A stretch of DNA of 64,000 bases from Bacteroidales bacterium (GTDB taxonomy: Bacteria > Bacteroidota > Bacteroidia > Bacteroidales > UBA12481), in NCBI GenBank assembly GCA_041658425.1, contig JBBAAF010000002.1:57156-121155 (forward strand). The letters run 5' to 3'. Position 1 is the first letter of the stretch. Each line of letters opens with the position of its first letter. The notes beneath the pieces are model-generated. The model saw only the letters and a program-made list of their open reading frames with translations. It did not search any database and was not told where the DNA came from. The position numbers were made by a program, and so were the translations under genes. Below are positions 9,469-53,191 of this stretch, one piece after another.

Positions 9469-9978
9469 ATGAAAAGGCCATATATGAACCCTTACCTGGC
9501 CGGCACCATGCTCGGGCTTGTCCTGCTCATGGCCATGTACCTTTCCGGGCGGGGACTTGGTGCAAGCGGCGGTCTCAAATATTGCGTTGTGTCTGCAGTA
9601 GGTAATATTGCCCCATCGCATGCAGAAAAATCGATTTACTACAGTAAATATTTTGAAGGAGGCAAGAAACCGTTGAAAAACTGGCTGACCTTTGAAATAC
9701 TGGGTGTGGTGGCAGGAGGATTCCTGTCTGGTGCAGTATCCGGACGGCTCAAATTCAAAATCGAAAAATCCCCCAAAATTTCAAATTCACGCAGGTTGTT
9801 TTTCGCCTTTCTTGGTGGAGTTTTCTTTGTTTACGGGGCCCAGCTGGCCAGAGGCTGCACAAGTGGCGCCGCACTCTCAGGAATGGCCGTTCTTTCGGTT
9901 GCCGGATTTGTCACCATGATAGCCATTTTCGGATCAGCCTATCTTTTTGCATGGTTTTTCAGAAAAAACTGGATCTGA
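9469..9978 (+). CDS. YeeE/YedE-family sulfur-compound transporter, first half-protein
   Basis: 169-aa polytopic membrane ORF with the conserved Cys motif (ARGCTSGAALSG) typical of the YeeE/YedE sulphur-transport domain. Confidence 0.8.
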   Translation: MKRPYMNPYLAGTMLGLVLLMAMYLSGRGLGASGGLKYCVVSAVGNIAPSHAEKSIYYSKYFEGGKKPLKNWLTFEILGVVAGGFLSGAVSGRLKFKIEKSPKISNSRRLFFAFLGGVFFVYGAQLARGCTSGAALSGMAVLSVAGFVTMIAIFGSAYLFAWFFRKNWI

Positions 9979-9990
9979 TAAAAAAATAAT

Positions 9991-10593
9991 ATGGGACCCA
10001 TAACATCTTTAATATCAATGCCTGAATGGTTGGATCTATTAATCGCCCTGATCATTGGCATCGGTTTCGGATTTGCACTCGAACAGGCTGGCTTCTCATC
10101 AAGCCGGAAACTGGCCGGAATGTTTTACGGTTATGATACAACCGTCGTCAAGGTTTTCTTTACCGCAGCCATAGTCGCGCTGGTCGGCTCACAGTTTCTG
10201 AGCTACTTCGGTCTGCTGAACCTCAATCTTGTCTTTGTGAATGAGTTTTACGTTGCCGCTTCGATTGTCGGCGGAGTGATCATGGGCGCCGGATTTATCA
10301 TGGGAGGCTTCTGCCCGGGAACCGGATTATGCGCCCTTTCAATCGGCAAGATCGATGCCATGGTCTTTTTTACAGGAGGCCTGACCGGGGCGTTCCTGTT
10401 CGCTGAAACCTATCCCCTGATACAAAACCTGGCCAACGGATCCTATAAAGGCCCGGTAAAGATCAATGAAGTCCTGGGAATCTCTCCCGGACTGTTCACT
10501 TTTCTGTTGATCCTGGCTGCAGTGGCTATGTTCTCGCTGGCTGAGGCAGCTGAAAAAAGATTTGCCAGGCCCGATATTACCGACAATTTATAA
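9991..10593 (+). CDS. YeeE/YedE-family sulfur-compound transporter, second half-protein
   Basis: 200-aa polytopic membrane ORF with a second conserved Cys motif (GGFCPGTGLC). Starts 12 nt after the first half. Confidence 0.8.
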   Translation: MGPITSLISMPEWLDLLIALIIGIGFGFALEQAGFSSSRKLAGMFYGYDTTVVKVFFTAAIVALVGSQFLSYFGLLNLNLVFVNEFYVAASIVGGVIMGAGFIMGGFCPGTGLCALSIGKIDAMVFFTGGLTGAFLFAETYPLIQNLANGSYKGPVKINEVLGISPGLFTFLLILAAVAMFSLAEAAEKRFARPDITDNL

Positions 10594-10601
10594 TCAGCCA
10601 G

Positions 10602-11213
10602 ATGAATACAAGAGTGAAATTTTCGGTCGTGCTCTTATCCCTCGGATTGATCCTGGCTATCCTCCCTTCGCCTGCAAAGAGAATACTGAAGGCAAAACCG
10701 GAAAGACTGGTCTCCCTCCTTAACGATGAAAAATCGTGGTTTACCGCCGATCAGGTTGCCCGTTTTGTGGTAAGCGGTGACATTAACGTCAGAATCATCG
10801 ACCTCAGGCCTGAATCAGAATTCCGGAAGATGACCATTCCCGGTTCGGTTAACATACCCTATAATGAGTTTATAAAGAAGAATCCCGCATCCTTTCTCGC
10901 GGCTGGAGATGTGAAAAACATCCTGTGCTCAGATGTTGAACAGGAAGCGGCCAACGCGTTCATCCTCGCTAAAGGGTTGAACTTTAAAAACACTTATATT
11001 TTAAAAGGGAGTGTGAATGAATGGGTTAAAACAGTCATGAACAACAGCTTCTCCGGTGACAAGATAACGGCCAGGGAAAACGCGCTGTTTGAAACACGCA
11101 CAAGGGCCAGTAAGATGTACACAGATTTCAACAACATGCCCGACAGCCTGAAACAGAAATTCTTTGAATCCAGGCGCCTGGCCACAAAGAAACTCGATGG
11201 CGGTTGTGAATGA
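10602..11213 (+). CDS. Membrane-anchored or secreted single-domain rhodanese-like protein
   Basis: 203-aa ORF with an N-terminal hydrophobic anchor. Rhodanese-like layout (IIDLRPESEF, a candidate active-site Cys in ILCSDVEQEA, then ILKGSVNEW). Confidence 0.6.
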   Translation: MNTRVKFSVVLLSLGLILAILPSPAKRILKAKPERLVSLLNDEKSWFTADQVARFVVSGDINVRIIDLRPESEFRKMTIPGSVNIPYNEFIKKNPASFLAAGDVKNILCSDVEQEAANAFILAKGLNFKNTYILKGSVNEWVKTVMNNSFSGDKITARENALFETRTRASKMYTDFNNMPDSLKQKFFESRRLATKKLDGGCE

Positions 11214-12254
11214 TTATTCGAAATTATTGATATCCGCTTTGGAAAAAGGCAGCCATGACAACGCCGCTTTCTGGCTTACCATTTTATCATACATGAAGCT
11301 GTTGTTGCCATATTTAAGGGTACGCGCATCATAACCGAATAACCGGAGAAATGCGGTTGCAAAACCTGAATTGTGACCGGTACCGCAATATACAACTACC
11401 GTTTTATCAGCCGGTATGGAAGCCATTTCATCTGTAAAACCAAGTGTCGCCTCAGGTTTATACCGTATGGCCCCCGGAATATGGCCATCGTCATACTTGT
11501 CCTTTCTATCCAGATTGATGACAAAATACCTGGTGGGATCAGCAAAAACCTCATCTGCAGTGATTAGAATTCCGGAAGTTCCGGCAGCGAATAGTTTCGC
11601 GAATCTTGCAGTGCCTATTTCGGCTCCTGTACCGAGGCCAGTACCCAATTCAGGCATTCCTTTGGGAGCAGGTCTTTCATGCACGGTTTTTTCAAGACTT
11701 CCTTCAAATTTCCCCGAAACACCGCGGAGCCAGCCCTCGCTGGCACATTTAATATTCCAGGCACTCATGCCCCATCGCATGGCATAAACATTGCCATATC
11801 CCATCAGGCGGAGCAAGCAGGTGGTATAGCTCGAAACCTGACCGTCCTCACATACCATGATGATCTTGTCAAATTCAAAAGGCTTGATCCCTGACTCAAA
11901 ATATCCCGGAAGATCCTCGAATTTCTTATTTATTGAACCTTTTATATGTCCGGCAGAATAATCCGAAGCTTGCCTCAGATCAATAACCAGGATATTTTTT
12001 CCGAGGCTTTCGTGTACGATCGAAGCTTTTATCAGCGATGGAAAAACCTGACTGTTAACATAATCCCCGTTGTCCTCCAGATCTTTCAGCAATAACGAAG
12101 TCTCTTTTCCGATAGAAACCGGTTTGGAAACAGCTGCTGCTTCAACCGTTGCCGCAGGCTTATTTTCAGCTTTCTTTCCCGTACATCCGGCAAAAACCAG
12201 CAATACCATCAGCCCGGCAAGGTTGTGCAGAGGGTGATTCGGAATTCTTTTCAT
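11214..12254 (-). CDS. Tandem-rhodanese (sulfurtransferase-like) lipoprotein
   Basis: 346-aa ORF with a lipobox (LVFAGC). Two rhodanese domains, each with a loop Cys (MVCEDGQVSS and VVYCGTGHNSG). Its stop codon directly abuts the stop of the convergent gene at 11213. Confidence 0.75.
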   Translation of the reverse strand: MKRIPNHPLHNLAGLMVLLVFAGCTGKKAENKPAATVEAAAVSKPVSIGKETSLLLKDLEDNGDYVNSQVFPSLIKASIVHESLGKNILVIDLRQASDYSAGHIKGSINKKFEDLPGYFESGIKPFEFDKIIMVCEDGQVSSYTTCLLRLMGYGNVYAMRWGMSAWNIKCASEGWLRGVSGKFEGSLEKTVHERPAPKGMPELGTGLGTGAEIGTARFAKLFAAGTSGILITADEVFADPTRYFVINLDRKDKYDDGHIPGAIRYKPEATLGFTDEMASIPADKTVVVYCGTGHNSGFATAFLRLFGYDARTLKYGNNSFMYDKMVSQKAALSWLPFSKADINNFE

Positions 12255-12267
12255 ACCAGGGGTGCAA

Positions 12268-13359
12268 TTAAATTTTTACAGGTAGCTTGCCCTTATCAAA
12301 CCGAAGAGTTTCAATCCTTTCTCCGGTTTCATCATACTTGTATTGGGTGATGGCAACACCGGTTTCCGGATTATTGATGACATTCCGGTCCTTGTCCATA
12401 TTTTTCGACTCAACCAAAGCCCCGTGAGCGTCATAGGTGTAACGGGTTACTGGAACATTTTTACCGCTTAAATATTCATTATCCTGGTCATAATAAACGG
12501 TTTCCAACACGTAGCCGTTCTCATCGAAGGTATTGACCCGCTTCGACCAACCCCAGTAAAGATTTGACATCTGTCCTGTTACATTGAATACGCTGAACCT
12601 TTCCAGATCACCGTTTTCGTTTGGCTGAAAGGTAAAATATGATACTCCGATATCTCCGCAGTTCTCAGCGGTACAATTGTAGAGCGTGTCGGCCTTGTAA
12701 TTAGCCATTCGGGTTACATATCCTTTTTCATTATAGGTAAACCGGAGTTCATAAAACGGGCAAAAGGGATTCATCACAACCTCTTCATTGGCAAGATTAT
12801 ACCTTAGCTCACGAACCATTCCATCCGGCAATATGCTCCATACCCATGAATGGATTTTATTCTCATTTTCAACAGGCTTGCCATCTTTTTCATAAAATTT
12901 AAGGCCCGCACGGATACCGTTGGCATCAAGAGTATATTCTTCCCTGAACACCCCCGATGATTCAACAGGTTCATTATTTTTATTGAATAGGTGCCTGATT
13001 TGTTTATTGCCAGTGTATTCATATTCAATTTTTGCAGCACCGTCCTTCGAGGAATAACCCAATAAAACATTGTTCCGAACAAATTCAACTGATAACAGCC
13101 GTCCTGAATTATCATAGGTGAACTTATAACTGTTGATCGTCTTAGCCTGACCGGAAGTAAGCGGATGAACGCCTTTTTCGATATCATACGGGCTTTCCGA
13201 AAACTGAAGGCTGCGGTAATACTCCACGCCGGTATGAAGTTTTTCGGACCCGGCTTTATTGGCGCATGAAAGGATACCTGCTGCGATGAACATCATCACT
13301 AAAAATCGGATTACTGATCTGTTGAATTTCATATACTTTATTAGGTTTCGTTTAAACAA
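12268..13359 (-). CDS. YD-repeat-like mini-lipoprotein, paralog 1
   Basis: 363-aa ORF with a lipobox (GILSC). Reiterated YD-type repeats are present (YKFTYDNSGRL, RFTYNEKGYV, TFDENGYV, RYTYDAHGAL, QYKYDETGER). Confidence 0.6.
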   Translation of the reverse strand: MFKRNLIKYMKFNRSVIRFLVMMFIAAGILSCANKAGSEKLHTGVEYYRSLQFSESPYDIEKGVHPLTSGQAKTINSYKFTYDNSGRLLSVEFVRNNVLLGYSSKDGAAKIEYEYTGNKQIRHLFNKNNEPVESSGVFREEYTLDANGIRAGLKFYEKDGKPVENENKIHSWVWSILPDGMVRELRYNLANEEVVMNPFCPFYELRFTYNEKGYVTRMANYKADTLYNCTAENCGDIGVSYFTFQPNENGDLERFSVFNVTGQMSNLYWGWSKRVNTFDENGYVLETVYYDQDNEYLSGKNVPVTRYTYDAHGALVESKNMDKDRNVINNPETGVAITQYKYDETGERIETLRFDKGKLPVKI

Positions 13360-13409
13360 TATTACGATTTCAAACCTAAAATGTTCCCGTAACTGCTAAA
13401 AAAAGAAAT

Positions 13410-14483
13410 TTAAAAGCAGCAGCAGTTGGTAAGATCATACCTGATATTGACCGGTGCCCCGTCCTTATCGAAACGAAGCGTCTCTGTGCGGGTTCCAAAC
13501 TGGTCATATTTGTATACAGTCCTGCAAACCCGATTTTCAGGATTATTAAAAGGTTTCCTGTCCTTATCAAGGTTCCAGGTTTCAGTCTCTGCACCATGTT
13601 CGTCATAAGCATGCCGGATTATGGGTACCCTTTTTCCCCCGATATACTCACCATCCTGATCGTAAAACACAGATTCCAGGAGATAGCCGTTGCGGTCGAA
13701 TTTGTTGATCCTCTTTGACCATCCCCAATAAACATTTGAGGTGAGCCCGCTTGCATTGAAAACCGAAAAACGTAATACGTCCCCCTGGTCATCGGGCTCA
13801 AAAAGAAAATAGGAAACCCCTACTTCACCGCAGTTTTCCGCAGTGCAATTGTATAAGGTGTCGGCCTTGTAATTTGCCATCCGGGTTACATAGCCTTTTT
13901 CGTTATAGGTGAATCTTAATTCATAAAAGGGACAAAAGGGATTCAGTATCGTCTCTTTTCCGGTCAGGTCATACCGGAGTTCCCGCACCATCCCGTCAGG
14001 CAGAACTTCCCACCTGAAAGAATGAATCCTGTTCCTGTTTTCAACCGGCTCCCCATATTTGCCGAAGAATGTGACACCGGTTCGGGTGCCATTTGGGTCA
14101 AGGGAATACTCAGCCCTGAATACGCCGGCGACCTCAATGGGTTCGTTTTTGTAATTGAAATAGTATTTATTCTGTTTATTATCTGAATAAACATAGGTTA
14201 TTTTTGCTGCAAATCCCATTGATGAATAGCTGAGCAGCAAGTTGTTCCTGACATATTCGACAGACAAAATACGCCCTTTGTCGTCATAGGTAAACTTATA
14301 GCTGTTGATGGTTTTTGCCTTACGGGCGGAAAGAGGATGGATGCCCTTTTCCATGTCAAAGGGGGTTTGGCTGGTCAGCAGGTTCCTGTAGAATTTTACA
14401 TCGTTCCGATTGCCGTTATCTGTTGGATGGCTGGTGCACGATATCATTACTATTGCAAGTAAAACATATAGGTGTGAGCGCAT
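13410..14483 (-). CDS. YD-repeat-like mini-lipoprotein, paralog 2
   Basis: 357-aa ORF with a lipobox (MISC). Collinear with paralog 1 and includes an identical 39-aa block. Confidence 0.6.
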   Translation of the reverse strand: MRSHLYVLLAIVMISCTSHPTDNGNRNDVKFYRNLLTSQTPFDMEKGIHPLSARKAKTINSYKFTYDDKGRILSVEYVRNNLLLSYSSMGFAAKITYVYSDNKQNKYYFNYKNEPIEVAGVFRAEYSLDPNGTRTGVTFFGKYGEPVENRNRIHSFRWEVLPDGMVRELRYDLTGKETILNPFCPFYELRFTYNEKGYVTRMANYKADTLYNCTAENCGEVGVSYFLFEPDDQGDVLRFSVFNASGLTSNVYWGWSKRINKFDRNGYLLESVFYDQDGEYIGGKRVPIIRHAYDEHGAETETWNLDKDRKPFNNPENRVCRTVYKYDQFGTRTETLRFDKDGAPVNIRYDLTNCCCF

Positions 14484-14580
14484 TTCGATCCTTTATTCAA
14501 ATTGATTTCAATTAAATTTTGATGGTTTTTTAAGCACCAGGCTTTTAATTACCCCGGCCTGTACCGGTATGCAATATCCA

Positions 14581-15249
14581 TCAGTTTTGAATTTCCACGA
14601 TCCAGTTGCCGGCTTCTGAAATCTCGATCTCCACAAGGATCTCGAATTGCGTTGTCCTGAGTTTATTCCAGGCTTTATAGCGGATGGATCCTTTAAAGGG
14701 GAACATGACATCCTCAAACCCGAATTTCGGACTGAATTTTGTTTCCCTTCCGCTACTGCCCGAAAGTTGCATATCCTGAAAATCGGTTGACACGCCTCCC
14801 ATCGAATTCGGATAGAACCACACCTGGTTTTCGACACCTTGTTTATAAACACGCATCCTGCTCACATTGCGCTGGGTAATAACCTTGTACGGAGGAGGCA
14901 GAACCTCTTTTTGCCGGATGTCGTTTTCCCATATCCAGGTCCGCTGAACTTCCTTCCCGTTTTCCTTGAAGATGACAGTACCTTTTCCGTTCCTTAATCC
15001 CTTCTTCCAATATCCTACATAAACGGTACCATCATCGAATTCAGCCCTGCCCTCACCTTCAGGATATCCTGCGGAAAACCTGCCCTTATAATGGAAACGC
15101 CCCCAGGCTTCACCAGCGCCGTGAGCCAGTCCGTTCTTGCATTTCCCGATATAAACCGAGTCCAGTGAAGGAAGCAGAACCTTGCACTCCGATTGGGCCT
15201 GGTCCGAGATTGTAACAAACAAGGCAATGAATAATATTATAAGTTTCAT
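14581..15249 (-). CDS. Secreted MORN-repeat protein
   Basis: 222-aa ORF with a signal peptide. Three or four MORN-type repeats (YIGKCKNGLAHGAG, YKGRFSAGYPEGEG, YVGYWKKGLRNGKG). Confidence 0.7.
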   Translation of the reverse strand: MKLIILFIALFVTISDQAQSECKVLLPSLDSVYIGKCKNGLAHGAGEAWGRFHYKGRFSAGYPEGEGRAEFDDGTVYVGYWKKGLRNGKGTVIFKENGKEVQRTWIWENDIRQKEVLPPPYKVITQRNVSRMRVYKQGVENQVWFYPNSMGGVSTDFQDMQLSGSSGRETKFSPKFGFEDVMFPFKGSIRYKAWNKLRTTQFEILVEIEISEAGNWIVEIQN

Positions 15250-15424: not shown

Positions 15425-16891
15425 CTATTGAACACCTGTCCTGACATCCCACCACATTTTCTGGCCCCAAAAGTAATCTTTGATATTACCTTCGTATTCC
15501 TTTAAATTCACTGAATTCAGTCCAGCCTCGGTCAGTGGGTAAGGAAGCCTGAAAGGAGCGCGGTTATGGTCCGGAAAGGCACTGTTATAGGCCGGTGGAA
15601 GCAAGGGGACATCGGTCCTTCTGGCATCGGCCCAGGCTTCGTTATTCATCAGGAACAGGGCAAGATATTTCTGCGTATAGATCTTCTTGAGATCATCTGC
15701 ATTATTTTGCCATGCCACACCTTCAGTTGCCAGATAGGGGGCTATTGCAGCATCAGACACGCCATACTGTTGCATCGAAGCTGTAATCCCTTTTTCGTAT
15801 TCAGCCTGTGCAACTGCGGCCTGTCCTGTTCGCAAAGCGATTTCCGCTTTCAAAAAGCAAATCTCCGAATACCTGAAGAAACCGTCGTTAACATTATATT
15901 CATTACCTCCGGTGGGATTAGGATTGCCGCTTACAAATACCGGATTGAAATCAGAAATATCCTCCCTGATAAAAGGCGGAACAAAGCCGACCCTTTCAGA
16001 TCCCCTGTATTTGCCATCTGTTGTGGCCGGTACAAACCATATCGGCAGCCTTGGGTCATTGAAATTATTCAACAGGTCGACAACGATTTTTCCGCCACCT
16101 TCGTGATGGCAGCAATACCACCAGTACCAGAATCCCTCTTCCCAGGGAGAAGTACCGGGCCATCTGAGTTCGATGTTGTCGGCATTGCTTCCAAGTACCG
16201 GATAATCGGCAGGATTGCCAAACAATTCATTGATGATTGAGGTAGAAGTGGCGAGATCAACATTCGAAATCCTGACGGCAACTCTCAATCGAAGGGAATT
16301 GCAAAACATCTGCCACTTTGCGACATCGCCGCCATTCAGAACATCACCTTCTCCGATGGGATCATTGCCACCAGCCTTAAACAAATCAGCTGCCTTTTTC
16401 AAGTCATCAATGATCGCTTTGTAGATGTCTTCCTGCTTGTCAAATTTCGGCGCAATAATGCCCTCTGCAGCTTTTGAAGCTTCCGAATAAGGCATGTCAC
16501 GCCATTGATCGGTGGCAACCTGTGTCATCTGGGCCCTGAAAGTGAGGGCAGCTGCCAGCATATTTGTTTTACCGTCCTGTTCTGCTCCGGCGATGATTCT
16601 ATTTATGTTCGTCAGACCTGCGTAATAGCCTCCCCACTCTTCACCAACGGAAAGGTAAGACTGATTTCCTGCTCCAAGCCTGGAACCAACATAATTGGCA
16701 TGTTGTGCCCCCATGCTTCCAGGACTGAAATTTTCGCTGAAATTTACAATTACGGCACCAAAATGATTGGTTGTCGGTACCGAGGAAGGTTGATTGGGAT
16801 TGGTATTGTAGGTCTCAAAATTCTTCGTGCATGCCCCCAGCAGTGCCAGGCACATTATCAGAATGATCCCTATGTTCAATTGTTTTTTCAT
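15425..16891 (-). CDS. SusD/RagB-family outer-membrane glycan-binding lipoprotein
   Basis: 488-aa ORF with a lipobox (LGAC). Lies immediately downstream of a SusC-like gene and has the TPR-like SusD composition. Confidence 0.9.
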   Translation of the reverse strand: MKKQLNIGIILIMCLALLGACTKNFETYNTNPNQPSSVPTTNHFGAVIVNFSENFSPGSMGAQHANYVGSRLGAGNQSYLSVGEEWGGYYAGLTNINRIIAGAEQDGKTNMLAAALTFRAQMTQVATDQWRDMPYSEASKAAEGIIAPKFDKQEDIYKAIIDDLKKAADLFKAGGNDPIGEGDVLNGGDVAKWQMFCNSLRLRVAVRISNVDLATSTSIINELFGNPADYPVLGSNADNIELRWPGTSPWEEGFWYWWYCCHHEGGGKIVVDLLNNFNDPRLPIWFVPATTDGKYRGSERVGFVPPFIREDISDFNPVFVSGNPNPTGGNEYNVNDGFFRYSEICFLKAEIALRTGQAAVAQAEYEKGITASMQQYGVSDAAIAPYLATEGVAWQNNADDLKKIYTQKYLALFLMNNEAWADARRTDVPLLPPAYNSAFPDHNRAPFRLPYPLTEAGLNSVNLKEYEGNIKDYFWGQKMWWDVRTGVQ

Positions 16892-16938: not shown

Positions 16939-19900
16939 TTAGAAGGATAATGCCAATTTCAGACCTAAGCTTCTTGAAGAAGGGATCTGCATCTGCTCAT
17001 ATCCCACACCGGCATTGCCGGTTCCAAAACCGGTCTCAGGATCAAGGTGAATATCGTTGGTCTTGTCGACATACAGCAAGGCCAGGTTCCTGGCAACAAA
17101 CGACACCCTTGCGGAATACATGCCCAGTTTCTTGGCAACTTTTCCAGGAAGGGTGTAACCAATGCTAAGCTCCCGCAATTTGATGAAAGATCCATCCATC
17201 ACCCAATATTCAGTCGTTCTCGCATATTGATTATAAAATTTCTGAGCGGTTACCCGTTTGGTATTCGGGGTACCGTCGGCCAGAACGCCCGGAACAACAA
17301 TACCGGTTTCCCTGACATTGGTAGCCCCTGTAAAAGGATCATTGAGGGTGAGGGAAGTGTTCCCAAACCTTGTGCCCCAGAATTTAGTACCACTTATGAT
17401 ATCACCGCCTTTGCGGCCGTCGATCAGGATGCCAAGATTGAATCCCTTATAGCTGAAGTTGTTCTGAAGGCCTCCGATCCAGTCGGGTGTGATGTTTCCA
17501 AGTTCAAAGTTACCGGGAGCATTTTGGGTAAGCCCGGCCGATGTTATAACCAGGTTACCCTGATCATCCCGCAGCCATTTCTGCCCCATGATAACCCCGT
17601 AGGGTTCTCCCGGTCTGGCTTCTATATAGGAACTCCACATGTCGGATATCCATAAAGATTCCAGATCACCATACAATTCATTGACTCTGTTATTGTTTTT
17701 TGCCCAGTTTAGTGTCAGGTCCCAGTTAAAGCCACCCTTCGACTGGATGACACTTGCTGAGAAAATCACCTCAACTCCTTTGTTTTCAATTTCGCCGGCA
17801 TTGATCAGCATGGAACTGTAACCTGCTGAAGTGGCAATGTCAACCGGCATGATCTGGTTCCGGGTTTTTAAATCGTAGTATGAAATATCGAGTTTAACCC
17901 GGTTATTGAAAAAGCGCATATCGAGACCAGCCTCGACCGAACCGGCGATTTCAGGTTTCAGGCCTACCGGCGGAAGGGTGCCCGGCAGGCTGAACATTGA
18001 TACTCCATTCCATGGAGATCCAATGGAATTGTAGGTTGCGGCAATCTGATAAGGACCGGTATCATTACCCACCTGGGCATAACTTGCTCTTACCTTGCCA
18101 TAGGAGAAGATCTTTGAATCGATCTTAAATGCATCTGTAAACACAAATCCCATGCTTACCGAAGGATAGAAATAGGACCAGCTATCCTTGGGCAACGACG
18201 AACTCCAGTCGTTACGTCCGGTTGCTCCCAGGAAGAGGTAGTTCTTATAAGAAAAGTTTACTGATCCAAGAACACTGTTTGTTACCTTCTTGGAATCGTA
18301 TTGAGAAACGCCGGGGGTTCCTGCAATGTTCCCTATGGTAAAGAAATCCGGTACCGTCAGGTTGTATGCATTAAGGCCCACTTCATGCCCTTCTTCAAGA
18401 CGGTAGTTAGCTCCGACAGTACCGTCGATCCGGAAATCTTCACCGATTTTCTTGTCAATCATGGCTAGGAAATCTGCATTGGTCTCCTGGGCAAATTTTT
18501 GGGTTTGCCAGAAATTACCGACCCCGTTGCCTTCATTACACTGGGCAAGCTTGATCTTTTTGCGCAACTCGTTATAATAATCAGTTCCGATCCTTCCTGT
18601 AAGAGTAATCCAATCTGCAATTTTATAATTTAAACTTGCATTGCCGAAAAAACGGTCCCTGGTTCTTGAGGCAGTGTTATGAAGCGATAAATAGGGATTG
18701 TCCATTTCGCCCAGAGAATAGGAATAGGTGTGGCCGAACTGATCGATTTCCTTCCAGTGTTCTTTAAGCGGTACTACGTCAACCTGGCGCTGGAACATTG
18801 CAAAAGTGGCAGCCGGGTTATCCCCGCCTCCGTCGTATCCCTGGCTTGGGAGGTTATTGCTGTGGTTATTCACATAGGTAAGGTTCGCCGAAGCTGACCA
18901 CTTATCCGATAACTTCAGGTCTCCGCTGACACTTGCCGTATTCTTGGTCAGATCGGTGTTGTAGACGGTACCCTTAATGTCATTGTTCGACAGAAATACC
19001 CTGATGGATCCGATATCGGAAGATTTTGACAGGGCAATCGAGTTATCGAGGTTGACTCCTGTTTCAAAGAAATCCTTCATATTATTCGGACGCGAAATCC
19101 ACAATTGGTCCTTACCGGTAAACTGGTCCAGCTTGAGACCTATATCCAACCGGGGTCCCCAGCTTCTGGGCTCACTGTCATTCACTCCGTTGCCCCAGCC
19201 ATCCACATAATTATATGAATATTTTTTGGCGAAATCCTGATAGGTAAGATTGGGATTACCCAATTCCGTTTTCTTTAGTTGCCAGTCATATTCGCTTCCG
19301 TACATCCCCCCGCCGTATGAATTCTGCCAGGTCGGGAAAATGCTTACGTTATCAAGGGTGACTGAACTGATCAGGTCGATTCCAAGCTTGTTCTTTGGTT
19401 GTGAACCCCTTTTCGTTGTGACAACAACAACGCCGTTGGCAGCGCGGCTGCCGTAAAGTGCGGCGGCGTTGGCCCCTTTCAGTACGCTCATCGACTCGAT
19501 GTTGCTCGGATCAAGGTCCATGGCCCCGTTGCCGTAATCCTGGCCTCCCCAGGCAGACATATCGGACGCGAAGTTGGTCATGGGGGTACCGTCAACGATC
19601 CATAACGGTTCGTTGTTACCGAACGAGTGGTTTCCACGGATGACAATCCTGGCTGAGGAGCCTACTGCACCGGTTGAATTGGTTACCTGCACCCCGGCGA
19701 TCTTTCCGGAGAGGGCGCTTACTATGTTTGTCGGCTTGACAGCATTTATTGCTTCATTACCAATATCCTGAACTGCATAACCAAGCGCCTTTTTTTCACG
19801 GCGAATTCCAAGGGCGGTAACAACCACCTCATCAAGGTTTATAACATCAGTTTCCAAACTGATATCATAATTGTTGGATGATGTTATTGGAACTTCCAGT

Positions 19901-20139
19901 TTACGGTAGCCTATTGATGAGAACACCAGGATGCCACCCTGACCCTGTATAGATAAAACAAACCGGCCGTCAACTCCGGTCGTGGTTCCATTTTGCGTCC
20001 CTTTTACCAAAACGGTTGCTGTTGGAATAGGCTGCTTATCTGCCGCAGAGGTGACTATTCCGGTCAATTGACGTGTCTGGCCGAAGAGAGTACCGGCAAA
20101 AAACACCGCCAACAGTACAAAAAATAGTTTTTGCTTCAT
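16939..20139 (-). CDS. SusC/RagA-family TonB-dependent transporter (no STN domain)
   Basis: 1066-aa ORF with a signal peptide. Carboxypeptidase-regulatory-like domain (GIVTSAADKQPIPTATVLVKG), TonB-box/plug region (VVVTALGIRREKKALGYAVQ) and a C-terminal barrel ending in F. Confidence 0.9.
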   Translation of the reverse strand: MKQKLFFVLLAVFFAGTLFGQTRQLTGIVTSAADKQPIPTATVLVKGTQNGTTTGVDGRFVLSIQGQGGILVFSSIGYRKLEVPITSSNNYDISLETDVINLDEVVVTALGIRREKKALGYAVQDIGNEAINAVKPTNIVSALSGKIAGVQVTNSTGAVGSSARIVIRGNHSFGNNEPLWIVDGTPMTNFASDMSAWGGQDYGNGAMDLDPSNIESMSVLKGANAAALYGSRAANGVVVVTTKRGSQPKNKLGIDLISSVTLDNVSIFPTWQNSYGGGMYGSEYDWQLKKTELGNPNLTYQDFAKKYSYNYVDGWGNGVNDSEPRSWGPRLDIGLKLDQFTGKDQLWISRPNNMKDFFETGVNLDNSIALSKSSDIGSIRVFLSNNDIKGTVYNTDLTKNTASVSGDLKLSDKWSASANLTYVNNHSNNLPSQGYDGGGDNPAATFAMFQRQVDVVPLKEHWKEIDQFGHTYSYSLGEMDNPYLSLHNTASRTRDRFFGNASLNYKIADWITLTGRIGTDYYNELRKKIKLAQCNEGNGVGNFWQTQKFAQETNADFLAMIDKKIGEDFRIDGTVGANYRLEEGHEVGLNAYNLTVPDFFTIGNIAGTPGVSQYDSKKVTNSVLGSVNFSYKNYLFLGATGRNDWSSSLPKDSWSYFYPSVSMGFVFTDAFKIDSKIFSYGKVRASYAQVGNDTGPYQIAATYNSIGSPWNGVSMFSLPGTLPPVGLKPEIAGSVEAGLDMRFFNNRVKLDISYYDLKTRNQIMPVDIATSAGYSSMLINAGEIENKGVEVIFSASVIQSKGGFNWDLTLNWAKNNNRVNELYGDLESLWISDMWSSYIEARPGEPYGVIMGQKWLRDDQGNLVITSAGLTQNAPGNFELGNITPDWIGGLQNNFSYKGFNLGILIDGRKGGDIISGTKFWGTRFGNTSLTLNDPFTGATNVRETGIVVPGVLADGTPNTKRVTAQKFYNQYARTTEYWVMDGSFIKLRELSIGYTLPGKVAKKLGMYSARVSFVARNLALLYVDKTNDIHLDPETGFGTGNAGVGYEQMQIPSSRSLGLKLALSF

Positions 20140-20421
20140 GGGTTAAATTTTACTTGTTTAAGTTTCTGACTATTCAACACGCTAAACTATCCTTAAGCAA
20201 AGGGAAAATAAATCACTTTGTTACCATCTTCATGTACTATCTTTGCACCGAGCCAGTGAACAATTTTGTGTAAACGAATAGCTGCCTGTTTAGCCGATAC
20301 TTACCCTGGATCATTCCTTTTCTTGTCGACTGAGGTTGGCATTTTTTTTGTTTTTTCCAGTCAATAGCCAATGATAGTCTGATGCCGTAATATTCTTTTA
20401 AGGATAAACATTCTAATCTGG

Positions 20422-20450
20422 TTTGGAAATTGAAAAAAGTTTTATTTTTA
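20422..20450 (+). promoter_or_regulatory. Candidate Bacteroidota sigma-A promoter (-33 TTTG, -7 TAnnTTTA)
   Basis: TTTG at 20422-20425 and TATTTTTA at 20443-20450, 17 nt apart, about 33 nt upstream of the lacI-like ATG. The -7 box misses the consensus at its last base. Confidence 0.3.
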
Positions 20451-20452
20451 CA

Positions 20453-20473
20453 CGCGTAAGTTACCGCGTAAGT
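20453..20473. promoter_or_regulatory. Direct repeat CGCGTAAGT x2 (period 12) containing the dyad GTAAGTTAC; candidate operator
   Basis: Copies at 20453-20461 and 20465-20473, ending 10 nt before the lacI-like start codon. Confidence 0.3.
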
Positions 20474-20482
20474 AAATTTAAA

Positions 20483-21368
20483 ATGAAACAAATTACGCAA
20501 GAAGATATCGCCCGGAAACTAAATGTCACCCGGATCACAGTGTCGAAAGCACTGAGGGATCATCCTGATATATCGGCCGCTATGAAGAAACGGGTGCTAC
20601 AGACCGCCGATGAGATGGGCTATTTGCCGAATCAGATTGCACAACAGTTAACCACCCGGACCACCAAAACCATCGGGGTGATTGTTCCCGATCTCGAAAA
20701 CAGCTTTTTCAGCCACGTGGTGAATAGCATTATCGATGCGGCAACCGATCGCGGTTACCAGATTTTACTCGCGGTGTCCAGGGAAAATGAGGAAATCGAG
20801 AAAAAGAACATCCGGAACCTGAGTGGTGTTCGATGATGACAAAGGGGTTCGCATGGCCATCGACCGGCTGGTTGTTGCCGGCTATTCACGTATCGCACAT
20901 TTTGCGGGGTATTCAACGACCAATATCGGAAAAGAAAGACTCGGGGGGTATAAGGCTGCCCTGATAAATAACAGCCTTATTGTCCGTGACAAGTGGATCA
21001 TTGAAGGAGGTTTTGAGCTGAACGACGGATATCATTCGTTCATGAAACTGTACGAACGGCATAATTTGCCGGAAATCGTACTAGCGGTAAACGACCGGGT
21101 GGCATTGGGCGCTTATAAAGCCATCAGGGAGCTGGGATTGCGCGTGCCTGAGGATATCGGGGTCGTTGGATTCGGCTTTACCGAAACGGCCGAAATGTTC
21201 AATCCTCCCTTATGCGTGATCAGTCAGGATCCCCGAAAAATGGGCCATCTTGCTGCCAACCGCCTCATGGATGAAATTCAGTCTTCATCAGTTTCAGGAG
21301 AAGAAATCAGAATTGATGAGACTTTTCAATGGAATAGTTCAGTTAAACAAAAAAATAGAGTGCAATGA
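20483..21368 (+). pseudogene. LacI-family regulator disrupted by an internal deletion and frameshift
   Basis: The HTH and early core (MKQITQEDIARKLNVTRITVSKALR ... IRNLSGVR stop at 20836) lie in one frame. The rest of the core (VFDDDKGVRMAIDRLVVAGYSRIAHFAG ...) lies in another frame starting at 20823. About 40 aa normally found between these blocks are missing. Confidence 0.75.
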
Positions 21369-22360
21369 AAAGAGTAGTTGTTACCGGTGCCGGTGGATTT
21401 ATCGGCGGTCACTTAGTAAAGGCCTTGATAGCAAAAGGTTATCACGTTCATGGTGTAGATAAGAAGCCGCTTAATCAATGGTATCAGGTTACCGAAGAGG
21501 CCGATAACCTGGTGCTCGACCTCACCACCAAAGAAAACTGCTATCAGGCGGTGAATGGATATCATGAAGTATTTAACCTCGCGGCCGATATGGGCGGGAT
21601 GGGTTTTATCGAAACCCACAAAGCCGATTGCATGTTGAGCGTTTTGATTAATACCCATTTGCTGATGGCGGCCCGGAATAAGGGGATCGACCGTTTCTTT
21701 TATGCTTCATCCGCCTGTGTATACAATGCTTCAAAACAAACAGACACCGATAATCCGGGACTACGCGAATCTGACGCTTATCCCGCTATGGCCGAGGATG
21801 GATATGGTTGGGAAAAGCTGTTCAGCGAGCGGATGTGCCGCCATTTCCATGAAGACTATGGAATTATTGTCAGGGTCGCCCGTTTTCACAATGTCTATGG
21901 ACCATACGGCACCTACGACGGCGGCCGGGAAAAGGCTCCCGCTGCCCTCTGCCGGAAAGTAATCGACGGGGAACTAAACGGGGTGAAGGACATCGTGATA
22001 TGGGGCGATGGCCATCAAACCCGGAGTTTTATGTACATCGATGATTGCATCAAGGGAATCCTGGCGATCATGTATAGCAATATCGAGGAACCTATCAATC
22101 TGGGCAGTAGTGAAATGGTATCGATCAACCAGCTGGCCGATATGGCCGAAGAAATTGGCGGGTTCAAACTGAACCGGTCGTACGACCTGAGCGCACCGAA
22201 AGGTGTTCGGGGCCGCAACAGCAAAAACACGCTGATCAGGCACTATTTGAATTGGGAGCCCTCGATTCCATTGATGGAAGGTCTGAAAAAAACCTATACC
22301 TGGATCCGGGAGCAGATGATCGAAGCCAAAGAATCCAACAAACACGTAAGGTTCAACTGA
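21365..22360 (+). CDS. GDP-mannose 3,5-epimerase-like NAD-dependent epimerase (extended SDR)
   Basis: 331-aa ORF with a GAGGFIGGHL Rossmann motif. Long collinear resemblance to GDP-mannose 3,5-epimerases as I recall them (RFFYASSAC.Y, RFHN.YGP.GT..GGREKAPAA.CRK, WGDG.QTRSF..IDDC, GVRGRNS.N). Its ATG overlaps the lacI-remnant stop (ATGA). Confidence 0.75.
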   Translation: MKRVVVTGAGGFIGGHLVKALIAKGYHVHGVDKKPLNQWYQVTEEADNLVLDLTTKENCYQAVNGYHEVFNLAADMGGMGFIETHKADCMLSVLINTHLLMAARNKGIDRFFYASSACVYNASKQTDTDNPGLRESDAYPAMAEDGYGWEKLFSERMCRHFHEDYGIIVRVARFHNVYGPYGTYDGGREKAPAALCRKVIDGELNGVKDIVIWGDGHQTRSFMYIDDCIKGILAIMYSNIEEPINLGSSEMVSINQLADMAEEIGGFKLNRSYDLSAPKGVRGRNSKNTLIRHYLNWEPSIPLMEGLKKTYTWIREQMIEAKESNKHVRFN

Positions 22361-23496
22361 TGATACCCCCGAAGAAGGTAATGGTCAGCGGCTGCTATGA
22401 TCTGCTGCACGTGGGTCATATCGCGTTTTTCAAAACGGCGGCCGCCTATGGAAAGTTGTATGTATTTCTGGGCCGCGACGAGAATATCCGTCAACTGAAA
22501 GGCCAGGCACCCTATTTCTCGCAGGAAGAGCGCAAATTCATGGTGGGTTCGATTAAATATGTTGAGGAGGCCGTAATATCAAGCGGAATGGGAATGATCG
22601 ATTTTGCTGATGATATGGCCAGGCTCAAACCCGATGTTTTCATCGTAAATTATGACGGCGGCTCGCAGGAAAAGAAAAGGCTATGTGAAAAACTCGGTGT
22701 GGAATATGTAGTGCTCGATCGTATTCCCGAGGAGGGATTGCCTGCCCGATCAAGCTCCGAAATCAAGGAAGAGCTGAGGTTCCCTTACCGCATCTGCATT
22801 GCCGGAGGCTGGATGGATCAGCCCTGGGTATCAGAAGTCCATCCGGGTTCTGTTGTGGTTGCCCAGATCTGGCCCACCATCGAATTCAACGACCGGAGTG
22901 GCATGGCAACCAGCTCCAGAAGCGTGGCCATTGAGTTATGGGGCAATCAGCTGCCGCAAGGCGATCCACTGCGCAATGCACAACTCCTTTTTGGAGCTGA
23001 AAACTTCCAGAAAACGTATGTCTCAGGTTCCCAGGATCATATTGGATTATTAAAACCCGGTGTTAACCGGCTTTATTACCACGGAAGCTACTGGCCGGAG
23101 AAGATTGAATCATCGATTGATCCTGATATCTGCGACTGGCTGTCGAGCGTCATACATCTCGTTCCCTTACGCCCCAGATCAGAAGGCTACAACCCTTTGC
23201 TGGATAAGCATCTGGATCAGGCTATCGTTAGGGAACTCGGCGAAGCGGGTGATAAATGCTGGGAAAGCATTGTCAGAAAAGATGTAATTGGCTTGGGCCG
23301 ATCAATGAAAGAGACTTTCCTGGCCTGGAAAAAGATGCTGCCATATACCGTGCCCGACTGGGTATTGCAGGAAATGGAAACCAAATACTTTCCGTATTAT
23401 CCGGGAGCCATTACTTCCGGAAGTGGCGGCGGCTATGTGATGGTGGCATCGGAGAAAGATGTTCCCGGGGCGGTTAAAATTCGTATAAAGTTTTAA
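22360..23496 (+). CDS. Fusion protein: cytidylyltransferase-fold nucleotidyltransferase (N-terminal) plus GHMP-family sugar kinase (C-terminal)
   Basis: I place the start at the ATG at 22360, which overlaps the upstream TGA; the ORF track begins at 22252. The N-terminal 130 aa carry an HxGH motif (LLHVGHIAFF). The C-terminal part has a GHMP motif II-like SGMATSS and a motif III-like SGSGGGYVMV. Confidence 0.65.
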   Translation: MIPPKKVMVSGCYDLLHVGHIAFFKTAAAYGKLYVFLGRDENIRQLKGQAPYFSQEERKFMVGSIKYVEEAVISSGMGMIDFADDMARLKPDVFIVNYDGGSQEKKRLCEKLGVEYVVLDRIPEEGLPARSSSEIKEELRFPYRICIAGGWMDQPWVSEVHPGSVVVAQIWPTIEFNDRSGMATSSRSVAIELWGNQLPQGDPLRNAQLLFGAENFQKTYVSGSQDHIGLLKPGVNRLYYHGSYWPEKIESSIDPDICDWLSSVIHLVPLRPRSEGYNPLLDKHLDQAIVRELGEAGDKCWESIVRKDVIGLGRSMKETFLAWKKMLPYTVPDWVLQEMETKYFPYYPGAITSGSGGGYVMVASEKDVPGAVKIRIKF

Positions 23497-23727
23497 ATTC
23501 TTAATTCGAATGCACCGGAGTGAAGGACCATTTCGATGACTTGGATGAGCAAACCTGGCGTAAATGAATCAATCTTGCTCCAAATTGCATGGGATATTAT
23601 GCCGCTAAATATTGTTTAGAACGATGGTACCGATTGGGAATTCCACGCCGGATTTAAGTTTCATAGAATTCCTTCGGACAAATCTTGAAATCGTTCCTTC
23701 TTGTAGCATTATTTTTATCTTCGCCCT

Positions 23728-24993
23728 ATGCCGCGTTTCGATAAAAATAAGACACTGACCCTGAGTGATGCCATCAAGGTGACACGGCCAAAATCCTTTA
23801 TGGTCATGGCTAAACCGATTGGACCGGTATGCAACCTGAATTGCACCTATTGCTATTATCTGGAAAAGGAGAAGCTGTATACTGATACCGGCAGTTTTAA
23901 AATGACCGGTGACGTATTGGAAAGCTATATCAAACAATTTATTGAATCACAAGAAGTTCCAATCATTACATTTACCTGGCAGGGTGGCGAACCCACTCTT
24001 CTGGGGCTCGAATTCTTTATTAAAGCAGTTGAACTTCAGCAAAAATACCGCGCAAGCAAGAAAATAGAAAATGCATTCCAAACCAATGGAACCCGTTTAA
24101 CGGAGGATTGGTGCCGTTTCTTTAAAAAGCACAATTTCCTGGTAGGGATTTCGATTGACGGCCCCGCCGAAATTCATGATAAATACCGCAAATCCAAATC
24201 GGGTAAGCCAACATATCAAGAGGTAATGAAAGGGATCCGGTTATTGAAAAGATTCCAGGTGGAGTTCAACACCCTTTCGGTAATCAATGATGCCAACGTG
24301 CTGAAACCTTTGGAAGTTTACCGGTTTCTCAAGAAGATCGGGAGCGGATACATTCAGTTCATCCCGATCGTTGAACGCCGGTCAGATATCGCGCCTCCCG
24401 ATGGCCTGACTCTGGTTTCACCCGCATACAGCGATCCTGCAAAACTGACCGATTGGTCGATAAGTGCCCGGCAATTTGGAAAATTTATGACTACGATTTT
24501 CGATGAATGGGTGCGGAATGATGTTGGCAAAGTATTTGTGCAGCTGTTTGATGTTACCCTGGCCAATTGGGTTGGTGCTCCTCCCGGCCTGTGTGTTTTT
24601 GCCGAAACCTGCGGGGAAGCAGCTGTGATGGAGCACAATGGCGATCTTTATTCGTGCGATCATTTCGTTTACACTGAATTTCTGCTTGGCAACATCCTTG
24701 AAACCCCGATGGGAGAAATGATGGCATCAGGCCGGCAGATTCAGTTTGGCAAGGACAAGCGCGATAACCTGCCCCGTCAATGCCTGATGTGTGATGTCCG
24801 GTTCGCCTGCCACGGCGGATGTCCCAAAAGCCGCATCGCCACAACTGAGGGAGGACAGCCCGGGCTCAATTGGCTGTGCGAAGGGTACAAATCTTTTTTC
24901 GAATACGTTAAACCGTACATGGATTTTATGGCTAACGAACTGGCTCACGAACGCCCGCCGGCTAATATTATGCATGCTTATCCTAACCAGTAA
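23728..24993 (+). CDS. Anaerobic sulfatase-maturating enzyme (radical SAM with SPASM domain)
   Basis: 421-aa ORF with CNLNCTYCYY (CX3CX2C) and GGEPTL. C-terminal Cys clusters (CDHF, CLMCDVRFACHGGCPK) are typical of anSME/AtsB-type maturases. Confidence 0.9.
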   Translation: MPRFDKNKTLTLSDAIKVTRPKSFMVMAKPIGPVCNLNCTYCYYLEKEKLYTDTGSFKMTGDVLESYIKQFIESQEVPIITFTWQGGEPTLLGLEFFIKAVELQQKYRASKKIENAFQTNGTRLTEDWCRFFKKHNFLVGISIDGPAEIHDKYRKSKSGKPTYQEVMKGIRLLKRFQVEFNTLSVINDANVLKPLEVYRFLKKIGSGYIQFIPIVERRSDIAPPDGLTLVSPAYSDPAKLTDWSISARQFGKFMTTIFDEWVRNDVGKVFVQLFDVTLANWVGAPPGLCVFAETCGEAAVMEHNGDLYSCDHFVYTEFLLGNILETPMGEMMASGRQIQFGKDKRDNLPRQCLMCDVRFACHGGCPKSRIATTEGGQPGLNWLCEGYKSFFEYVKPYMDFMANELAHERPPANIMHAYPNQ

Positions 24994-52738: not shown

Positions 52739-53191
52739 ATGAGAAACTGGAATTATCTGAAGCGCCCGGTTGGTGCAGGTTTACTGGCAACATCATTGAT
52801 GTCAGTACTTTCATCCTGCAGTTCAGCCGTTCAAAAATTGGATGGGAAAAGCTTTGTTCCGATGCTTCTTCAAAAAGGCACAACGGATAAAGGCAGGAAT
52901 CTCTACTGGCATTTTCCCAACAACTGGGGGCCGACCGGTCCGGGAATCGCAACTACCAGCACCATACGAAGCAGCGACTGGAAGCTTATTTACTGGTATG
53001 AAAACCAGCATTTTCAATTGTTTAACATCCTTGAAGACATTGGTGAACTTCACAACCTGGCTGGTGAAAATCAGAAGAAAGTGAAAGAACTGGCAAAGGA
53101 ATTGGGGCAATATCTCCGCAGTGTGGATGCACAGCGTCCAATATTCAAGAGCACCGGAAAACCGGTTCCCTGGCCTGATGAATTGATTTAG
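52739..53191 (+). pseudogene. Sulfatase remnant: a lipoprotein-type signal joined directly to a sulfatase C-terminal subdomain
   Basis: 150-aa ORF. Residues 30-150 match the C-terminal part of S1 sulfatases (DGKSFVPMLLQ, LYWHFP, RSSDWKLIYW, LFNILEDIGELHNLA). The whole catalytic N-domain, including the FGly motif, is absent. Confidence 0.7.

Follow-up and report, generated by a model that had tools for sequence, protein, structure and literature searches.

We analysed a 64,000-nucleotide stretch of the genome of a Bacteroidales bacterium (GenBank assembly GCA_041658425.1, contig JBBAAF010000002.1, positions 57,156 to 121,155; hereafter the window), in which the + strand at 20483-23496 carries, in one co-directional string, a split LacI-family regulator, a gene for a GDP-mannose 3,5-epimerase (GME) homologue and a gene fusing a nucleotidyltransferase to a sugar kinase. 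The genes and domains of this string are the following:

20483-20836, + strand: LacI-family regulator, N-terminal fragment with the helix-turn-helix and the start of the sugar-binding domain (PF00356, E = 7e-12); piece of a putative pseudogene
20823-21368, + strand: LacI-family regulator, C-terminal fragment in a different frame (PF13377, E = 2.4e-25)
21365-22360, + strand: GME homologue, an extended short-chain dehydrogenase/reductase (SDR) of 331 aa
22360-23496, + strand: nucleotidyltransferase-kinase fusion gene, 378 aa
22360-22773, + strand: N-terminal HxGH (cytidylyltransferase-fold) nucleotidyltransferase domain of the fusion (PF01467, TIGR00125); proposed L-galactose-1-phosphate guanylyltransferase
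22774-23496, + strand: C-terminal shortened GHMP sugar kinase domain of the fusion, fucokinase clade (profile and Foldseek); proposed beta-L-galactose (or L-fucose) 1-kinase

An original prediction made from the DNA letters alone had placed the two enzyme genes at 21365-22360 and 22360-23496 with a stop/start overlap, and these boundaries are exact: the GME stop codon TGA (22358-22360) and the ATG of the fusion gene share the single base 22360. An ATGA at 21365-21368 joins the stop of the LacI C-terminal fragment to the GME start in the same manner. The mechanical list of open reading frames (ORFs) gave the fusion gene a longer frame with a TTG start at 22252, which is ruled out by 35 orthologues (alignment A1); their N-terminus is MxxKKVMVSGC, and 22360 is therefore the real start.

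The epimerase carries the diagnostic residues of GME

Sequence comparison confirmed the product of 21365-22360 as a genuine GME homologue. In phmmer searches of all Protein Data Bank (PDB) sequences its best matches were Arabidopsis GME (AtGME; PDB 2c59, E = 1.5e-95) and another plant GME (8sg0, 1e-93), with other SDR classes, including GDP-fucose synthase, UDP-xylose synthase and GalE, at about 1e-29 or worse. Identity to AtGME extends over 150 of 316 aligned residues (47%), and the only characterized bacterial GME is 50.5% identical to the same plant enzyme (PMC6678494). The residues that set GME apart from GalE and GDP-fucose synthase are S143, Y174, K178, C145, K217, R306, R243 and N203 of AtGME; R306 acidifies the Cys, R243 binds the diphosphate, N203 is a conserved Asn, and in place of the C145/K217 acid-base pair GDP-fucose synthase uses His and GalE has none (PMC8787198). 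The window epimerase contains the NAD-binding motif GAGGFIG at 8-14, the catalytic triad S116, Y147 and K151 (AtGME S143/Y174/K178) and the Cys/Lys acid-base pair C118/K190 (AtGME C145/K217), the pair being invariant in all full-length aligned orthologues. R282 and R284 within GVRGRNS, together with R220 and N176, are invariant in 78 of 78 sequences, and all GME diagnostic residues are invariant among the full-length operon-linked orthologues aligned. The resemblance to GME claimed in the original prediction is thus borne out, and the 47% identity to AtGME supports a predicted interconversion of GDP-D-mannose with GDP-L-galactose or GDP-L-gulose.

The same prediction had called GME uncommon in bacteria, a view that the metagenomic record overturns: bacterial metagenomes contain at least 8,000 clusters of GME homologues (90% identity) at E <= 1e-40, many of them labelled 'GDP-D-mannose 3',5'-epimerase' by JGI. 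Bacterial GMEs have been ascribed in the literature to lipopolysaccharide (LPS) or antibiotic synthesis (including PMC6678494). The equilibrium of the enzyme is unfavourable in the forward direction used by plants (PMC8787198, a review), and therefore favourable for the conversion of GDP-L-galactose (GDP-L-Gal) to GDP-mannose (GDP-Man).

The fusion joins an HxGH nucleotidyltransferase to a minimal fucokinase-type domain

Residues 9-137 of the fusion match PF01467 (CTP_transf_like) at 46.4 bits against a cut-off of 21, and the domain also exceeds the cut-off of TIGR00125 (49.1 bits). The HxGH motif reads H17-V-G-H20 and is invariant in alignment A1; towards the end of the domain lies R130-S-S-S-E-I-K136, with S132, S133 and K136 invariant, which we take to be the C-terminal ISSTxIR-like phosphate-binding motif of the HIGH superfamily. 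None of the named equivalogs is reached (TIGR02199 rfaE_dom_II, 45.6 against 181.5; TIGR01518 TagD, 39.9 against 165.4; PRK11316, 33.4 against 521), and the domain scores below every equivalog cut-off. Its relatives by PDB sequence are ECT (ethanolamine-phosphate cytidylyltransferase), TagD (glycerol-3-phosphate cytidylyltransferase) and 3glv, and those by Foldseek are 3glv, TagD, Fom1 and HldC (TMt 0.65-0.86). Databases name the fusion 'cytidyltransferase-like protein' or 'FAD synthase'. We reject the latter, carried by some NCBI records, as a name that mirrors only the PF01467 fold common to archaeal RibL. We infer GTP as the nucleotide because the partner enzymes are GDP-specific.

The C-terminal half of the fusion is invisible to standard models. 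Its final ~240 residues (~139-378) match no Pfam or NCBIfam model, the Pfam GHMP models included, and a single-sequence phmmer search of the fusion against the PDB matched the N-terminal domain only. Likewise, the fusion has no Fucokinase or NTP_transferase match in Pfam or NCBIfam of the kind that would mark an NTP_transferase/beta-helix GDP-fucose pyrophosphorylase, and no PfkB domain in Pfam. Searching 1.84 billion representatives exhaustively with phmmer, we collected a family of 567 clusters at 50% identity for this C-terminal domain, some distant members of which match PF08544 (GHMP_kinases_C). A profile of 35 diverse members (A2), searched against PDB sequences, found its best match in the fucokinase part of Bacteroides fragilis Fkp (9iip, E = 9.3e-17; also 5yys and 9iit), followed by heptose kinases (3k85, 9e-10; WcbL, 8e-8; 4n3o) and then mevalonate kinases. 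Foldseek with an AlphaFold model, which we used for fold class only and not for pocket analysis, returned WcbL, Fkp (9iit, 9iip), 3k85 and 4usk for the kinase half. By family profile, distant PF08544 matches and Foldseek, the domain is related to GHMP kinases. The original prediction had proposed that the protein follows the logic of Fkp with different parts, and this is the arrangement observed: a PF01467 HxGH domain and then a GHMP kinase nearest the Fkp fucokinase.

Structural work on Fkp assigns R592 to stabilization of the leaving group, W599 to stacking on C4-C5-C6 of fucose, D601 to binding of the C3- and C4-OH and Q761 to binding of the C4-OH, with D762 as the general base; the D762A mutant is dead, as is E751A (PMC11982464). 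The equivalents of R592, W599, D601, E751, Q761 and D762 in the fusion are R144, W151, D153, E214, Q225 and D226, all invariant in close orthologues. In the window protein the segment PYRICIAGGWMDQPW carries the first three, AEN carries E214, and GSQDH carries Q225 and D226. The position of Fkp W599, Trp in the fusion, is Gly in the heptose kinase 3k85. Fkp T602 corresponds to Q154, and W760, which lies beside the catalytic Asp, to S224; this replacement of Trp by Ser means that the sugar pocket is not identical to that of Fkp. GHMP motif 3 (GxGGGG) takes the form SGSGGGY at residues 353-359, and the phosphate loop reads R-S-G-M-A-T-S-S-R (179-187), with G181, A183, S185 and S186 invariant. 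A canonical full-length GHMP N-domain with a PxGSGLGSSA loop is not found in this domain of only ~240 aa, in which motif 1 and the QD motif are ~52 residues apart, compared with ~140 in Fkp. On these motifs the domain is best described as a predicted 'mini' fucokinase-type kinase, not a canonical one.

Members of the kinase-domain family occur as stand-alone proteins of ~240 aa, as the ~378-aa fusion and in larger fusions. The last include a RhaM mutarotase, a nucleotidyltransferase and the mini-kinase in one chain (P0138), a PNP_UDP_1 phosphorylase with the same two domains (P0161), Gmd (GDP-mannose 4,6-dehydratase) with the mini-kinase (P0193) and a GT2 glycosyltransferase with the mini-kinase (P0129); tandem nucleotidyltransferase domains accompany the mini-kinase in P0121. 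Fusion to RhaM in P0138 links the kinase with a free sugar whose anomer matters, and the range of partners suggests that the mini-fucokinase family is broader, with both catabolic and biosynthetic uses.

The gene pair is conserved amid catabolic neighbours

Among 185,579 species, each represented by a single genome, a scan identified the fusion in at least 584 species genomes. We counted neighbours in 81 loci, taken from the best 80 of these at least 584 genome matches together with two hand-picked loci, at 61% identity or more; the genomes are mostly metagenome-assembled genomes (MAGs). Locus ORFs were called simply, with ATG starts only, and clustered by single linkage, cluster representatives were named by Pfam and NCBIfam, and a family was counted where it lay within five genes of the fusion. 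The best 80 carriers are mostly Bacteroidales, namely Prolixibacteraceae (Draconibacterium, Maribellus, Mariniphaga, Tangfeifania and Sunxiuqinia) and MAGs labelled Rikenellaceae, with others from Ignavibacteriota/Melioribacteraceae and a single member of Sedimentisphaerales. For the majority the source is sediment, fen, lake or digester material.

GME lies directly upstream of the fusion on the same strand in 77 of the 81 loci, separated from it in most cases by no more than 21 nt. Around this pair the most frequent families are GH29 glycoside hydrolases, in 45 loci, and LacI regulators, in 44. ManC-type mannose-1-phosphate guanylyltransferases follow (20 loci), then FucP permeases (16), RhaM-family mutarotases (14), GH27-like enzymes (12), AP_endonuc_2 proteins (12), GFO_IDH_MocA proteins (9), GH95 enzymes (8) and Amidohydro_2 proteins (8); esterases are a further recurrent group. 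Of the 81 loci, 61 contain one or more of GH29, GH95, FucP and RhaM. The FucP neighbour scores 610 bits to TIGR00885 (cut-off 280) and the ManC neighbour 327 bits to TIGR01479. In the most complete arrangements these genes form evident operons: LacI followed by GME-fusion-ManC-FucP-RhaM-GH29 (L040), GH29-GME-fusion-GH29-FucP-RhaM-ManC-LacI (L071) and, in the isolate Maribellus sp. YY47 (L016), LacI followed by GME-fusion-x-ManC-FucP-RhaM, x being one intervening gene. The 102 remaining near neighbours consist mainly of additional glycoside hydrolases and transporters. Across the 290 near-neighbour positions examined there is no recurrent family of glycosyltransferases, flippases or polymerases, and the 25 most frequent neighbour families listed include none of glycosyltransferase or capsule type.

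Two further features of these neighbourhoods stand apart from the operon set. In L002, L019, L047, L081 and others, genes for AP_endonuc_2 (a xylose-isomerase-like TIM barrel), Amidohydro_2 and GFO_IDH_MocA proteins lie near the operon and may make up an oxidative route that runs alongside it for another sugar released at the same time, for example L-fucose; Amidohydro_2 is the family of L-fucono-1,5-lactonase. A protein of ~203 aa with no Pfam match is encoded on the opposite strand near the operon in ~10 genomes (for example L027, 14528-15139, - strand).

A proposed GDP-based route for L-galactose

The observed family assignments, gene structures, residue conservation and gene linkage lead us to propose that the GME-fusion pair is the conserved core of a catabolic, Leloir-like, GDP-based pathway for L-galactose, a reading to which we give a probability of roughly 60%. 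In this pathway exo-alpha-L-galactosidases of GH29 (and GH95) would free L-galactose, a FucP-type permease would import it and a RhaM-type mutarotase would set the anomer. The C-terminal mini-GHMP domain would then phosphorylate L-galactose at O1 to give beta-L-galactose-1-phosphate (beta-L-Gal-1-P), which the HxGH domain would convert with GTP to GDP-beta-L-galactose and pyrophosphate (PPi). Epimerization at C3 and C5 by the GME homologue would yield GDP-alpha-D-mannose, from which ManC, running in reverse with PPi, would release mannose-1-phosphate (Man-1-P) and regenerate GTP. Phosphomannomutase and mannose-6-phosphate isomerase would carry the product to fructose-6-phosphate, for a predicted net cost of one ATP per L-galactose and no net redox change, and a LacI-family repressor would control the operon. 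The direction of flux and the control by LacI are predictions, as are the sugar and the nucleotide. The window itself contributes the kinase/nucleotidyltransferase/epimerase core pair and a broken LacI gene to this operon set; it encodes only the kinase, guanylylation and epimerase steps, and the other functions must lie elsewhere in the genome.

We infer L-galactose in place of L-fucose as the sugar because only the sequence GDP-L-Gal to GDP-Man to Man-1-P suits GME, ManC and central metabolism together. The operon-linked GH29 enzymes are consistent with this choice, their nearest solved relative being the exo-alpha-L-galactosidase 7ljj/7lk7/7lnp (and 7snk), at E = 7e-91 (L057), 2e-86 (L040) and 1e-149 (L001), with the next PDB entries at 1e-57 to 7e-75 and classical fucosidases (1hl8) at 1e-38 to 7e-61. 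GH29 enzymes active on desulfated porphyran oligosaccharides, from which they free L-galactose, have been documented (bioRxiv 10.64898/2026.05.19.726164, citing Robb et al.). Fkp phosphorylates L-galactose and forms GDP-L-Gal, with an affinity 100-fold lower than for fucose (PMC11982464).

The original prediction had raised an entry route from an L-hexose to GDP-D-mannose for catabolism or salvage, linked to algal glycans. Comparative genomics supports the first part, through the pairing with GME in 77 of 81 loci, the catabolic neighbours and the Fkp-type kinase residues; the link to algal glycans is at most tentative, with carriers that come mostly from sediments, fens, lakes and digesters.

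Weighing the alternatives

Several observations weigh against the proposed L-galactose pathway. The neighbourhood counts describe the closest matches, found mostly in MAGs with simple ORF calling. ManC is near the fusion in only 20 of 81 loci, and tblastn of the 64-kb window found no ManC, FucP, RhaM mutarotase, GH95 or L-galactosidase-type GH29. To our knowledge HxGH/PF01467 enzymes use CTP or ATP, so that GTP use would be a new specificity for PF01467 sugar-1-phosphate enzymes. The kinase domain is ~90 residues short of a normal GHMP N-domain and its activity may be lost or altered, and the AlphaFold model is mediocre (pLDDT 72.5, below 50 at residues 121-139 and 177-230). FucP, GH29, GH95 and an Fkp-like kinase are equally signatures of fucose, which Fkp favours 100-fold, and the Gmd- and GT2-fused kinase relatives point to biosynthetic roles in other lineages.

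An anabolic salvage like that of Fkp, in which the fusion recycles L-fucose and/or L-galactose to GDP-sugars for the cell's own surface glycans and GME balances the GDP-Man and GDP-L-Gal pools, would account for an architecture and conserved residues that parallel an enzyme doing just this in Bacteroides, for the relatives joined to Gmd or GT2, for the biosynthetic roles given to bacterial GMEs in the literature and for the scarcity of ManC, the step that makes the route catabolic. We nevertheless consider it unlikely, since the genes keep company with a LacI repressor, glycoside hydrolases, a permease and a mutarotase and, in the 290 near-neighbour positions examined, with no recurrent glycosyltransferase, flippase or polymerase family, and a ManC placed right after the fusion in GME-bearing operons suits recycling of GDP-Man better than its de novo synthesis. 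Activation of heptose or another capsule sugar by a heptose-phosphate kinase and adenylyltransferase (HddA/HldE-like), the alternative offered in the original prediction, can draw on the presence of 3k85, WcbL, 4n3o and HldC among the structural and sequence relatives and on a weak match to TIGR02199. That match is far below its cut-off (45.6 against 181.5), Fkp scores far above the heptose kinases and shares with the fusion the Trp that is Gly in 3k85, no capsule, LPS or glycosyltransferase genes recur nearby, and GME has no role in heptose pathways; we find this explanation scarcely credible.

The remaining alternatives change the nucleotide or the sugar. The HxGH domain could make CDP- or ADP-L-galactose (or L-fucose) for the GME homologue, or a ManC-type enzyme could activate the L-sugar-1-phosphate while the HxGH domain acts otherwise, as might be expected from nearest relatives that depend on CTP or ATP (ECT, TagD, RfaE domain II/HldC) and from scores under every equivalog cut-off. 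An epimerase 47% identical to AtGME that keeps all GDP-specific GME residues, including the diphosphate-binding Arg, makes this improbable, as do a partner ManC that is a GDP-mannose enzyme by TIGR01479 and the ~60 loci in which fusion and GME occur without ManC, where the fusion must therefore supply the substrate of GME. More doubtful still is L-fucose as the substrate, activated to GDP-L-fucose, from which the GME homologue would make a 6-deoxy sugar such as GDP-6-deoxy-D-mannose (GDP-D-rhamnose). In its favour, fucose has its classical markers in the FucP equivalog, GH29 and GH95, the Fkp-type pocket is kept down to the Trp that stacks on C4-C6, and the PUL in the window (described below) holds ordinary GH29 fucosidases and sulfatases. 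Set against this, we know of no catabolic fate for GDP-D-rhamnose, the GME product expected from GDP-L-fucose, and of no energy-yielding route from it or from D-rhamnose-1-phosphate; ManC and GME suit hexose chemistry, the operon-linked GH29 enzymes belong to the alpha-L-galactosidase clade and not to the fucosidase clades, and Fkp W760 is Ser in the fusion.

Relation to known pathways

The fusion shares with Fkp (B. fragilis; PDB 5yys, 9iit, 9iip) an N-terminal sugar-1-phosphate nucleotidyltransferase and a C-terminal GHMP anomeric kinase in one chain, and the kinase halves are homologous, with the same six functional residues. By contrast, it is 378 aa long where Fkp has 949, its HxGH/PF01467 nucleotidyltransferase is non-homologous to the NTP_transferase and beta-helix of Fkp, and its kinase is ~90 residues shorter between motif 1 and the phosphate loop, which is SGMATSS in place of a Gly-rich loop. 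Fkp serves glycan decoration, whereas the fusion is paired with GME in operons of LacI, glycoside hydrolase and permease genes. HldE/RfaE likewise joins a sugar kinase to an HxGH-fold sugar-1-phosphate nucleotidyltransferase, and HldC is among the structural matches, but the HldE kinase has a PfkB/ribokinase fold and is N-terminal, where that of the fusion is GHMP and C-terminal, and the equivalog models are far off. Plant GME of the Smirnoff-Wheeler pathway and Methylacidiphilum fumariolicum GM35E have the same Gly motif, S/Y/K triad, Cys/Lys pair and Arg residues as the window epimerase, whose proposed role is reversed (GDP-L-Gal to GDP-Man) and catabolic, in contrast to the ascorbate and cell-wall synthesis served by the plant enzyme.

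In outline the proposed route resembles the Leloir (GalM-GalK-GalT-GalE) and bifidobacterial GNB/LNB pathways, which also combine a mutarotase, a GHMP-type anomeric kinase, nucleotide activation, an epimerase acting on the nucleotide sugar and release of a common hexose-1-phosphate, with genes in an operon alongside a LacI-family repressor and a permease. It would differ from them in using GDP and not UDP, a 3,5-epimerase and not a 4-epimerase, and an L-hexose as substrate, and in employing two pyrophosphorylases (the HxGH domain and ManC) in place of the uridylyltransferase exchange. Its components come from known superfamilies and its logic follows Leloir and Fkp; what is new is the domain architecture, the physiological role given to GME and, probably, the nucleotide specificity within the HxGH fold. 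Bacteroides vulgatus reportedly oxidizes L-galactose to D-tagaturonate through L-galactose dehydrogenase, a lactonase and L-galactonate dehydrogenase (a pathway attributed to Hobbs and colleagues, 2014). This route, the only bacterial one for L-galactose catabolism known to us, concerns the same presumed substrate and phylum, but its chemistry is oxidative and proceeds without nucleotide sugars. We found no account of the fusion, of an L-galactokinase or of a bacterial GDP-L-galactose catabolic route in a literature search of incomplete coverage, in which absence is not proof. On balance we see an even chance that these genes represent an undescribed GDP-dependent, Leloir-like L-galactose catabolism widespread in Bacteroidota, Ignavibacteriota and some Planctomycetota, among whose enzymes would be the first dedicated L-galactose 1-kinase of bacteria (a minimal GHMP enzyme), the first HxGH-fold guanylyltransferase and a catabolic GME.

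L-Galactose occurs in red-algal galactans (porphyran and agar precursors), in plant rhamnogalacturonan-II and in some invertebrate and microbial glycans, and exo-alpha-L-galactosidases have been recognized only recently. If the proposal is correct, bacterial sugar metabolism would gain a third Leloir-type pathway, in which the first steps of the plant ascorbate (L-galactose) route run backwards, and the presence of a 'plant' GME in thousands of environmental bacteria would be explained. A protein family of at least 584 species genomes that now bears the names 'cytidyltransferase-like' or 'FAD synthase' would acquire a function as well. The GME-fusion pair could serve genome annotation as a marker of L-galactose use in bacteria rich in polysaccharide utilization loci (PULs), and its compact enzymes could serve one-pot synthesis of GDP-L-galactose and other GDP-L-sugars, a bottleneck named in the GME literature.

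A disrupted LacI gene and its upstream region

The N-terminal LacI fragment aligns with residues 1-117 of intact orthologues of 338-340 aa and then ends; relative to these (alignment A3), ~43 codons are gone between the fragments and the frame changes near 20830. The split gene is either a pseudogene or the product of an assembly error. If the disruption is real, the GME-fusion pair may therefore be expressed constitutively from the promoter region that precedes LacI. In the closest relative (L083, 98% GME identity) the downstream layout is the same, on a contig that stops 147 nt upstream of GME, before LacI. One promoter candidate was noted:

20217-20245, + strand: candidate promoter of Bacteroidetes type (TTTG...TAnnTTTG), located upstream of LacI in the divergent intergenic region; weak, with only its position suggestive

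This pattern occurs at chance frequency, with 3 matches in the window against 2.8 expected, and sigma-70-like promoters or terminators show no excess over shuffled expectation in 20100-23760.

Genomic setting and other genes of the window

The gene string lies between two PULs and beside a sulfatase maturase, as the original prediction had it. Upstream, across a 340-nt intergenic region, a divergent SusC/SusD pair occupies 16939-20139 and 15425-16891; an anaerobic sulfatase maturase (23728-24993; 561 bits against a cut-off of 484) begins 231 nt downstream of the fusion, and beyond it lies a PUL with ECF sigma/anti-sigma/SusC/SusD genes, GH42, GH31, GH3, GH43-GH29, GH29 and three S1 sulfatases. 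The GH29 enzyme at 55751-57124 is of the ordinary fucosidase type (best PDB match 6gn6), outside the L-galactosidase clade. The position of the pair next to a sulfatase maturase and between GH29- and sulfatase-rich PULs is circumstantial evidence for a sulfated fucose- or galactose-containing glycan as its sugar source.

Within the downstream PUL, 50354-52714 encodes a two-domain protein with GH43-like and GH29 (Alpha_L_fucos) regions. A 150-aa ORF at 52739-53191, which has only the C-terminal SGSH_C sulfatase domain and directly precedes a full sulfatase (53214-55742), may be a gene fragment. Right after the SusC/SusD genes of this PUL, 32085-35890 contains an SDR gene and two genes like glycine dehydrogenase subunits (GcvP-like: GDC-P, GcvP2_C/Aminotran_5), an unusual cargo for a PUL, and an ADP-ribosylglycohydrolase-family gene (40687-41769) sits amid its GH42, GH31 and GH42-like genes. 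Between PULs, at 9469-12254, a YeeE/YedE-type sulfur transporter split into two ORFs (halves of PF04143) precedes two rhodanese-domain genes, with which it forms a small sulfur-handling cluster. Downstream of the upstream SusD, 12268-15249 holds small genes with MORN-repeat and RHS-repeat traces and a 357-aa ORF without any Pfam match (13410-14483), which are presumably surface lipoproteins of the upstream PUL.

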